Source: a virus
Strand: one strand, 5' to 3'
DNA: 64,000 bases
IMG/VR virus record: IMGVR_UViG_3300018080_000099
Location: 64,001 to 128,000 of that record
Both the position numbers and the translations under genes were made by a program. The notes below the pieces were generated by a model, which saw only the letters and a program-made list of their open reading frames with translations, did not search any database and was not told the DNA's origin. How positions within the stretch are numbered: the stretch's first letter is position 1; every line of letters begins with the position of its first letter. Below are positions 55,455 through 55,527 of this stretch, in pieces.

Positions 55455-55527
55455 TGGTTGTGAGAGAAGGAATCGAACCTTCGACAGCCACCGCGGGTTT
55501 TTAGCTGCTCAGCACCTCAGTCTCACA
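55455..55527 (-). tRNA. tRNA-like gene with a perfect 7-bp acceptor stem, T-arm and CCA but no foldable anticodon arm
   Basis: TGTGAGA / TCTCACA acceptor, GAAGG TTCGATT CCTTC, A73 CCA; the 38-nt body CTGAGGTGCTGAGCAGCTAAAAACCCGCGGTGGCTGTC gives no 5-bp stem with 7-nt loop. Confidence 0.35.

Follow-up and report, generated by a model that had tools for sequence, protein, structure and literature searches.

A 64,000-nucleotide (nt) stretch of viral DNA (record IMGVR_UViG_3300018080_000099, positions 64,001 to 128,000; here called the window) contains a 73-nt gene, E1, that has kept the ends of a transfer RNA (tRNA) and lost its anticodon arm. We lean toward reading E1 as the relic of a tRNA, no longer used in decoding but still excised by ribonuclease P (RNase P). 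An earlier note had grouped E1 with two other tRNA-sized elements, E2 and E3, and had proposed that these could be structural tRNA mimics rather than decoding tRNAs. The denial of a decoding role agrees with our results for E1 and E3, in which no model places an anticodon loop, but not with those for E2, which has a normal anticodon arm and belongs to a conserved family. E2 is a tRNA-Arg(UCU) of unusual architecture and, judged from its sequence relatives, most likely a working one. The positions of all features are listed in Table 1.

The order of segments in E1 is UGUGAGA-(38 nt)-GAAGG-UUCGAUU-CCUUC-UCUCACA-A-CCA. The flawless 7-bp acceptor stem, consensus T-arm, A73, and encoded CCA that had been read from the letters were all confirmed, with 7/7 and 5/5 Watson-Crick pairs and a UUCGAUU loop. 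Together, the two helices form a 12-bp (7+5) coaxial acceptor/T helix with a 3′ A-CCA, the form of a minihelix-type substrate of RNase P. Pair 3-70 is U-A and not G-U. The T-arm is identical to that of the tRNA-Tyr gene of the same array (63838-63854) and to an isolated T-arm fragment at 51289-51306. When both strands of the window were scanned for 7/7 plus 5/5 acceptor/T-arm combinations, only tRNA genes (those of the array and a lone tRNA(CUA) gene), E1, E2, and E0, a neighboring tRNA-like gene, were found, and E1 is therefore not a chance match. Nor is it an assembly artifact, since the window sequence is also present in a 263.8-kb contig of the European Nucleotide Archive and in three other assemblies, which were found by look-ups of flanking proteins, and the region is 99.97 to 100% identical in the four independent assemblies.

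The 38-nt body, in contrast to the ends, is unrecognizable as part of a tRNA. A check by hand of every register found no 7-nt loop closed by a stem of 5 or 4 bp, the Rfam tRNA model (RF00005, gathering threshold 29 bits) gave no match to E1 even at E ≤ 10, and ARAGORN made no call either in standard mode or in its permissive metazoan-mitochondrial mode, which accepts tRNAs lacking an arm. These three approaches thus agree with the earlier statement that the body cannot form a 5-bp/7-nt anticodon arm. Covariance models for tRNA, transfer-messenger RNA (tmRNA), and the tRNA-like clan likewise revealed no standard cloverleaf in E1; the best score in the tRNA clan was obtained with the tRNA-Sec model (18.7 bits, cut-off 47). 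The remnant of the D-arm, CUG-AGGUGCU-GAGC, is without the 5′ strand of the D-stem and allows at most two pairs, and the equivalents of U8-A9-G10 are gone. In the minimum-energy fold, the acceptor stem is followed by a 12-nt linker, a 6+3-bp hairpin that ends in a 3-nt CGC loop, and the T-arm. With acceptor stem and T-arm held fixed, the body folded no better than shuffled sequences (z = +0.98; 86% of dinucleotide shuffles folded at least as well). Fold stability cannot separate real from decayed elements, as E0, a clear cloverleaf, reached a z of only −0.42 in the same constrained test.

Sequence comparison indicates that E1 descends from a canonical tRNA of the Ile, Lys, or Arg type. The best non-self matches of a covariance model built for E1 (R1) were all canonical tRNAs, namely a tRNA-Ile(GAU) of locus L043 (44.1 bits), a tRNA-Met of L047 (38.7 bits), and further tRNAs of L059 to L061 at 31 to 37 bits (L059, 37.1 bits). 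Over its 3′-terminal 35 nt, E1 shares 94% identity with the L043 tRNA-Ile, and the acceptor stems of the two differ at pair 3-70 (U-A versus A-U) and at pair 7-66. The E1 segment CUGAGGUGCU-GAGC-A corresponds to CUCAGGGGUUA-GAGC-A of the L043 tRNA, which covers the last part of the 5′ strand of the D-stem, the loop and 3′ strand of this arm, and position 26. The E1 segment GCGGU lines up with the anticodon-stem 3′ strand of this tRNA, and equivalents of its anticodon-stem 5′ strand and of U8-A9-G10 are missing. The pattern GAGCAGCU-N17-UCGAAGGUUCGAUUCC occurred at 62 metagenomic and 4 viral loci, where the spacing was nearly always 17 nt and all sequences typed by ARAGORN were tRNA-Lys, tRNA-Arg(UCU), or tRNA-Ile(UAU). 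E1 contains both blocks with N18, and its anticodon-arm segment is therefore near normal length yet unable to pair.

The distribution of changes is uneven. Compared with the L043 tRNA-Ile, the ends of E1 show 3 events, two of which compensate each other, against 12 for its body (binomial P = 0.03). In 20,000 simulation runs with uniform substitutions that erased the D and anticodon stems, and that ignored insertions, deletions, and segment replacement, acceptor stem, T-arm, T-loop, and CCA all stayed intact in 0.01%. Uniform point substitution is thereby rejected as the source of flawless ends around an erased body. This leaves two explanations, namely that segmental damage was confined to the middle or that the ends were kept by purifying selection.

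The position of E1 suggests how its ends could be useful. It lies between tRNA-Lys(UUU), 7 nt upstream, and E0, 6 nt downstream, with spacers comparable to the 1 to 9 nt that separate the tRNAs of the array. E0, a near-canonical cloverleaf, came up in our own scan and, among the finders, in the mitochondrial mode of ARAGORN only (fold z, −3.56). A promoter-like site, identified solely by its match to the consensus, follows just downstream of E0 and suggests that the Lys-E1-E0 group ends a transcription unit. E1 would then be cotranscribed with tRNA-Lys(UUU), with Lys-E1-E0 as the tail of one transcript. The minimal substrate of bacterial RNase P is a 12-bp acceptor/T helix with a 3′ RCCA, and this enzyme separates polycistronic tRNA transcripts. 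RNase P, either that of the host or an enzyme with the RNase P RNA that the phage itself encodes (52247-52501) and that lacks the specificity (S) domain, would cut at the 5′ end of E1, and E1 would be freed as a CCA-ended RNA of about 73 nt. The same cut would also free the 3′ trailer of tRNA-Lys, which could be a selective reason to keep the minihelix after decoding had been lost. Of the mimic functions suggested earlier, that of a putative processing handle fits E1, given the intact minihelix with CCA, the tRNA-like spacers, and an RNase P RNA within the array. A decoy for anticodon nucleases is excluded for E1 because it has no anticodon loop.

About half of the weight that we place on E1 as a still-processed relic goes to active maintenance of its ends by selection, and several points weigh against this reading. 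Selection on the ends is suggested by one alignment with a distant tRNA and one simulation. One or two recent segmental events would also leave perfect ends in the absence of selection, which is plausible because the array harbors several HNH-type endonuclease genes. The poor fold of the body argues against an evolved structure and does not separate a handle from junk, and the processing logic suits E3 less, which has no CCA. Exact and gapped DNA patterns retrieved no E1 orthologue from IMG/VR, JGI metagenomes, or GTDB genomes, and all four copies of E1 that were found are identical. In about 0.8 Mb of related arrays, R1 detected no family resembling E1, and blastn against GenBank phages matched the neighboring tRNA-Lys and not E1.

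That E1 is a functional mimic, excised as a CCA-ended minihelix and serving factors that recognize the acceptor end as a decoy or a handle, is possible but on balance unlikely. Candidate factors would be toxins that modify CCA or cleave acceptors, EF-Tu/SmpB-type binders, and the CCA-adding enzyme. Perfect ends on an erased body speak for this explanation, and the predicted fold, with its GG-containing linker and capped irregular hairpin between acceptor stem and T-arm, is compatible with it. A YrlA-like module, RtcB, and an “RNA-binding protein” occur in the same phage, and arrays of other huge phages contain ACCA-ended tRNA-like genes in which a closed hairpin takes the place of the anticodon arm (L017 4080-4161 and L023 9783-9883). 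The lack of orthologues and of an R1 family speaks against a mimic, however, as does a body no more stable than its shuffles. In addition, E1 has neither G3-U70 nor support from tmRNA models, no partner protein was identified, and the missing anticodon loop rules out anticodon nucleases as targets. An unlikely explanation, in our estimation, is a recently killed neutral pseudogene, in which a few segmental events hit the middle, the perfect ends reflect recency, and any processing is incidental. Imprecise repair of endonuclease breaks could serve as an example of a route, given five open reading frames (ORFs) with HNH matches in the array; remnants with broken acceptor stems (E5 and E6) and T-arm fragments lie nearby, many isoacceptors are duplicated, none of the 20 amino acids depends on E1 for coverage, and tRNA pseudogenes have been reported in jumbo-phage arrays (PMC5852040). 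On the other hand, the body of E1 aligns block by block with canonical tRNAs (N18 versus N17), which indicates many small changes rather than one replacement, and small changes spread uniformly almost never spared the ends in the simulation. E1 also differs from the wrecked tRNA genes of the array in having flawless ends with an unrecognizable middle; these wrecks, some of which lie beside ORFs with HNH matches, fit a birth-and-death turnover of tRNA genes.

An unconventional decoding tRNA that takes its anticodon from a nonstandard loop, analogous to the E2 family, is very improbable and close to refuted. The same array does contain working-looking tRNAs overlooked by standard finders (E2, E0, and E4), and the E2 family shows that phage tRNAs may depart from the cloverleaf. 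The body of E1, however, closes no 7-nt loop with 4 or 5 bp, its sole hairpin ends in a 3-nt CGC loop, the model of the E2 family (R3) does not match it, and the mitochondrial mode of ARAGORN finds nothing. A broader scheme would have the phage lineage run a partly private tRNA system, with its own RNase P RNA, rewired E2-family tRNAs, and the anticodon-less mimics E1 and E3. In such a system the RNase P RNA would read mainly the acceptor stem and CCA, and the mimics would be maintained by selection as processing handles or as decoys for host factors that act on or recognize the acceptor end of tRNAs. We consider this scheme speculative and doubtful.

Several other origins of E1 were considered and rejected. 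E1 is not a piece of a tmRNA, as it lacks G3-U70, a tag frame, and model support, and it is not a member of the E2 architecture, as R3 gives no match. The GAGGUG in its linker does not serve as a Shine-Dalgarno sequence for a mini-ORF, which would have neither a plausible start codon nor a plausible frame. A 12/13-nt match between nt 11 to 23 of E1 and the L15 region of the phage RNase P RNA was at chance level (E = 5.4), and a donation of the body from elsewhere in the window found no support beyond chance-level 11-mers.

E2 had been described as having an over-long, irregular central region. Length and irregularity were borne out, but the gene passes the Rfam tRNA threshold with a regular anticodon arm, and a mimic is thereby refuted. 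In the Rfam alignment, only 5 nt occupy the D-arm slot between U8-A9 and position 26, and the variable region comprises 22 nt. A gene with the same layout is present in an unrelated phage contig (L034 4628-4708; Rfam, 38.7 bits) and shares with E2 the motif AACUG...UGAAAA ahead of the T-arm. A scan of IMG/VR for this motif retrieved 20 contigs with 21 parsed genes. In 20 of the 21, a 7-bp acceptor stem, U8-A9, and 5 to 6 nt are followed by a perfect 5-bp/7-nt anticodon arm and then by 22 to 26 nt with GUAANUGG and UGAAAAY before the T-arm; in L130, the parser found no perfect anticodon stem. The anticodons of the family are those for Ile (GAU, UAU) and Arg (UCU, UCG, ACG) only. Standard ARAGORN overlooked 19 of the 21 genes.

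The family has an analogue of the D-stem at an unusual place. Three nucleotides after position 10/11 (s1) pair with three nucleotides that end in the G of GUAANUGG (s1′), for example CAA/UUG in E2, CGA/UCG in L130 and L131, CCC/GGG in L134, and CAG/CUG in the Ile group. It follows from this pairing that the D-stem analogue encloses the anticodon arm and that the GG-containing, D-loop-like strand has moved into the variable region. The corresponding motif of E2, s1′/GUAACUGG/UGAAAAU, is conserved in the 21 seed sequences and in 35 model matches. These 35 matches were obtained with R3 at E < 1e-6, several per genome, and the family now comprises 36 distinct sequences, two of them from cultured phages. 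In the alignment fitted to R3, the s1/s1′ helix is 93% paired with exchanges among AU, CG, GC, and GU (pair 13-48: AU 13, CG 13, GC 5, GU 2; pair 14-46: GC 13, CG 10, AU 4, GU 1). It is still 87% paired in a structure-blind MAFFT alignment. For the whole structure in the R3-fitted alignment, 97.4% pairing and a covariation score of 0.943 were obtained, versus a score of 0.218 for shuffles and 38 to 45% pairing in controls in which the pairing was slid. E2 is most likely a working tRNA because all four helices covary throughout the family and because the anticodons are restricted to Ile and Arg. The transposed D-stem would preserve the L-shape. A literature search found no published description of tRNAs with a transposed D-stem.

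The two genes from cultured phages, Microbacterium phage Pumpernickel and Vibrio phage D260, are unannotated and lie in intergenic gaps. A gene for a B12-binding radical-SAM enzyme was located 0.1 to 2.3 kb from the E2-type tRNA in both phage neighborhoods that were looked at; a link to tRNA modification is possible.

For E3, the earlier description as a cloverleaf with a 7-bp terminal helix and without a T-loop was correct. Its helices of 7/5/5/4 bp comprise 21 pairs (19 Watson-Crick and 2 G-U), and none of 200 shuffles folded as well (z = −3.36). The loops are AGGAUAA in the place of the T-loop, AAUAUUAAU, and ACAUCG as a 6-nt “anticodon” loop. E3 occupies a tRNA-sized slot between tRNA-Tyr and tRNA-Trp, and its 5′ half, GGGCUGU-U-CGUCUAAU..UAGGACG, resembles D-arms of the Gln/Glu type. 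Neither RF00005 nor ARAGORN recognized it. The best non-self matches of a model built for E3 (R2) were exclusively canonical tRNAs, led by a tRNA-Gln of L041 (24.1 bits) and a tRNA-Ala of L044 (19.8 bits). By sequence, E3 is thus classified as a derivative of a Gln/Glu-type tRNA that has kept the helices and lost the GG of the D-loop, the T-loop consensus, and the 7-nt anticodon loop. Retention of the helices together with loss of the functional loops suggests that E3 is constrained in its shape rather than for decoding.

The RNase P RNA found within the array matches the bacterial class A model RF00010 over the full length of the model, and its specificity domain is absent. It is likely the processing enzyme for the array. 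A spacing-restricted pattern retrieved similar RNAs from 16 IMG/VR contigs, most of them inside tRNA arrays. Among 8 of these contigs scanned with Rfam, 6 had RF00010 matches, and in two the 100-bit cut-off was exceeded (136.2 and 105.5). The related RNAs are 221 to 269 nt long. When 15 of these RNAs were aligned, GAGGAAAGUC, UGCAA, GGGUAG, AGAUAGAUG, and ACAGAAUCCNGCUUA proved to be conserved, and RNAalifold recovered P4, P5, and P15 with compensatory changes. No published report of a phage-encoded RNase P RNA was found in a literature search. Two viral arrays with a mini RNase P RNA also contain tmRNA genes (L052 404-770, 56.7 bits; L049 1-209, 55.8 bits; Rfam). The end of a gene for a metallo-β-lactamase (MBL)-fold protein coincides exactly with the start of the phage RNase P RNA. 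Candidate roles of this protein are cyclic-nucleotide degradation or that of a tRNA 3′ nuclease. The YrlA-like candidate lies in a gap of the array and has the permuted order T-arm, closed acceptor-like hairpin, and D-arm, with the Ro-binding stem unmatched.

The source of the window is a jumbo phage without a close relative among GenBank phages in blastn searches. According to ARAGORN, 46 tRNA genes form an array on the minus strand in the last 17 kb of the window (47.4 to 63.9 kb), and they serve all 20 amino acids without E1, with several isoacceptors duplicated. The Rfam gathering threshold is passed by 42 tRNA genes of the window, and 43 of the 46 array tRNAs encode CCA in our own scan. 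Five ORFs with matches to HNH endonucleases interrupt the array, two of them above the Pfam cut-off. The other ORFs among the tRNAs encode a PTH2 peptidyl-tRNA hydrolase, the B12/radical-SAM enzyme, the MBL-fold protein, and a macro/DarG-like protein. Upstream of the array lie genes for RtcB, methyltransferases, and a PHROG “RNA-binding protein”. The DUF2828 protein of 490 amino acids (aa) gave no Pfam TROVE match and no PDB sequence match that would mark it as a relative of Ro/TROVE. Relatives of the PTH2 protein are at most 51% identical and occur in IMG/VR contigs of up to 385 kb, those of the radical-SAM enzyme are 48 to 60% identical, and synteny followed through these neighboring proteins showed no conserved arrangement.

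Table 1. Positions of the features discussed. Plain coordinates refer to the window; L numbers and accessions denote other sequences.
Feature	Position	Strand	Remarks
E1, tRNA-derived gene without anticodon arm	55455-55527	minus	73 nt including CCA
E1 acceptor stem, 5′ strand UGUGAGA	55521-55527	minus	7/7 Watson-Crick with 55459-55465
E1 body, 38 nt	55483-55520	minus	D-loop-like CUGAGGUGCU, then GAGC-A (D-stem 3′ strand and position 26)
E1 T-arm GAAGG-UUCGAUU-CCUUC	55466-55482	minus	stem 5/5, consensus loop
E1 acceptor 3′ strand UCUCACA, A73, CCA	55455-55465	minus	
tRNA-Lys(UUU)	55535-55612	minus	ARAGORN; Rfam 70 bits
E0, near-canonical Val(UAC)-like cloverleaf	55376-55448	minus	C33, G8, no CCA
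Sigma-70-like promoter TTGACA-16-TAAAAT	55330-55357	minus	best site of scan, 11/12 positions
E2, tRNA-Arg(UCU), transposed D-stem	59235-59317	minus	G73, CCA; Rfam tRNA 36.8 bits vs 29; R3 71.9 bits
E2 s1 CAA, 5′ strand of 3-bp D-stem analogue	59304-59306	minus	pairs with UUG 59280-59282
E2 anticodon arm CUGAG-CUUCUAC-CUCAG	59286-59302	minus	anticodon UCU 59293-59295; Rfam alignment and own parse
E2 s1′ UUG, GUAACUGG, AGC, UGAAAAU before T-arm	59263-59282	minus	first G of GUAACUGG is last s1′ base
E3, 70-nt cloverleaf 7/5/5/4 bp	63739-63808	minus	Gln/Glu-type D-arm, no CCA
E4, Ala(UGC)-like	60900-60975	minus	short D-loop, over-long anticodon stem, 4-bp T-stem, ACCA
E5, broken acceptor stem	59863-59942	minus	Rfam 28.9 bits, partial
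E6, 24-nt anticodon loop, broken acceptor stem	63198-63283	minus	24.8 bits
Isolated T-arm fragments	51289-51306, 51695-51711	minus	inside nominal 249-aa ORF 50965-51714
Mini RNase P RNA, 255 nt, bacterial class A, catalytic domain only	52247-52501	minus	Rfam RF00010 75.6 bits, E 1e-21
MBL-fold protein, Apyc1/RNase Z-like type	52500-53312	minus	Pfam Apyc1 107.6 bits; weaker N-terminal RNase Z similarity
YrlA-like tRNA mimic candidate	54435-54505	minus	Rfam YrlA 23.3 bits vs 69; E 0.0034 in 136-nt search
RtcB	30860-32209	plus	
Lone tRNA, anticodon CUA	34202-34278	plus	ARAGORN label “Pyl”; Rfam 54.5 bits
DUF2828/DUF7788 “RNA-binding protein”, 490 aa	36988-38460	minus	
Extra-hairpin tRNAs	50015 Cys, 50348 Gln, 53326 Met, 54314 Asp, 62350 Ile, 62631 Pro, 63060 Gly, 63290 Asn, 63648 Trp		
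Radical-SAM genes near E2-type tRNAs	57812-59131; L034 1020-2348	minus (window)	
E2-type tRNA, Microbacterium phage Pumpernickel	NC_073468.1, about 100456-100533 (L148 2485-2562)		Arg UCU, G73, R3 71.5 bits
E2-type tRNA, Vibrio phage D260	OZ195864.1, about 66332-66411 (L149 2464-2543)		Arg ACG, R3 60.3 bits; 95-nt tRNA-array gap
Candidate E2-type tRNA, LR756502.1, 642-kb uncultured phage	390979-391058		blastn match
Related mini RNase P RNAs	L044 5399-5667, L047 352-587, L049 5635-5877, L054 2248-2468, L053 1206-1465, L043 1410-1666, others in L039-L052		

The array contains further odd genes. E4 overlaps the 3′ end of an HNH ORF, scores 26.4 bits with Rfam (threshold, 29 bits), and was found by the mitochondrial mode of ARAGORN. 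The 249-aa ORF that surrounds the isolated T-arm fragments may be over-called. Many class I tRNAs of the window reach 83 to 94 nt because their variable region contains an additional hairpin, in which GUAA, GUAAA, or UAAA often caps a stem of 3 bp. This insertion is recurrent, with GAC-GUAA-GUC in Cys and AGC-GUAA-GCU in Asn as examples. A MAFFT alignment of the window tRNAs was too poor for building a phage-specific tRNA model. The lone tRNA(CUA), of the amber suppressor type, is not part of the array; it is situated between the genes for RtcB and the DUF2828 protein and may indicate TAG read-through or recoding. In other huge phages, tRNAs with inserts of 20 to 30 nt in the anticodon loop or with a closed hairpin were observed (L015 7578-7682, L033 13309-13416, L033 20024-20131, L051 8433-8527, and the L017 and L023 genes mentioned above). 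In the L033 gene at 13309, insert and GUU anticodon form a helix of 10 bp. Since phages encode RtcB ligases, one may ask if splicing removes some of these inserts.

Taken alone, E1 is a modest curiosity, a tRNA gene cut down to the part that is seen by RNase P and the enzymes acting on CCA ends. If its ends are kept by selection, E1 would show that tRNA genes can outlive their decoding function as punctuation marks within polycistronic transcripts. The E2 family is the larger, most interesting, and most testable outcome, as it comprises unannotated genes in culturable phages; if these tRNAs work, they are a natural exception that can be tested there directly. As standard finders overlook them, phage tRNA inventories are undercounted. 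The mini RNase P RNA genes in the arrays likewise indicate that current annotation may miss part of the machinery for tRNA maturation in phages.

Among known systems, the tRNA arrays of jumbo phages, for which tRNA pseudogenes and “tRNA-like sequences” have been annotated (PMC5852040), come close to the window. Shared features are a large array at the genome end, a CUA suppressor, odd tRNA-sized genes, and coverage of 20 amino acids without these. E1 differs in not being uniformly degraded. The tRNA-like domain of tmRNA resembles E1 in shape only, with an acceptor stem, a single-stranded GG segment in place of a D-arm, a long helix, a T-arm with almost no variable loop, and A-CCA. E1, however, has only 73 nt and a capped helix, it lacks an mRNA-like domain, pseudoknots, a tag frame, and G3-U70, and neither ARAGORN nor Rfam called it a tmRNA. 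With the minihelix substrates of RNase P, E1 shares exactly the 12-bp acceptor/T helix with RCCA, and it lies among tightly spaced, CCA-encoding tRNAs. Here the differences are that the phage RNase P RNA has no specificity domain and that cleavage of E1 is a prediction. YrlA and other Y RNA-like RNAs (RF02553) are non-decoding tRNA mimics linked to RNA repair loci of the RtcB type. YrlA is circularly permuted, with a closed acceptor-like stem and with both RNA ends in the Ro-binding stem, whereas E1, E2, and E3 are open and match no such model.

For the E2 family, the metazoan mitochondrial tRNAs that lack the D-arm, such as tRNA-Ser(AGY), offer a comparison (PMC4013460). In both groups there is no D hairpin in the usual place, and the acceptor, anticodon, and T arms are kept. 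In contrast to the mitochondrial tRNAs, the E2 family still forms a 3-bp D-stem analogue, with the D-loop-like GUAANUGG in the variable region. The 22 to 26 nt between anticodon arm and T-arm are also reminiscent of the class II tRNAs for Leu, Ser, and Tyr. In the E2 family, however, this region is not a simple hairpin but contributes the 3′ strand of the D-stem and the GG motif, and the identities are Ile and Arg.

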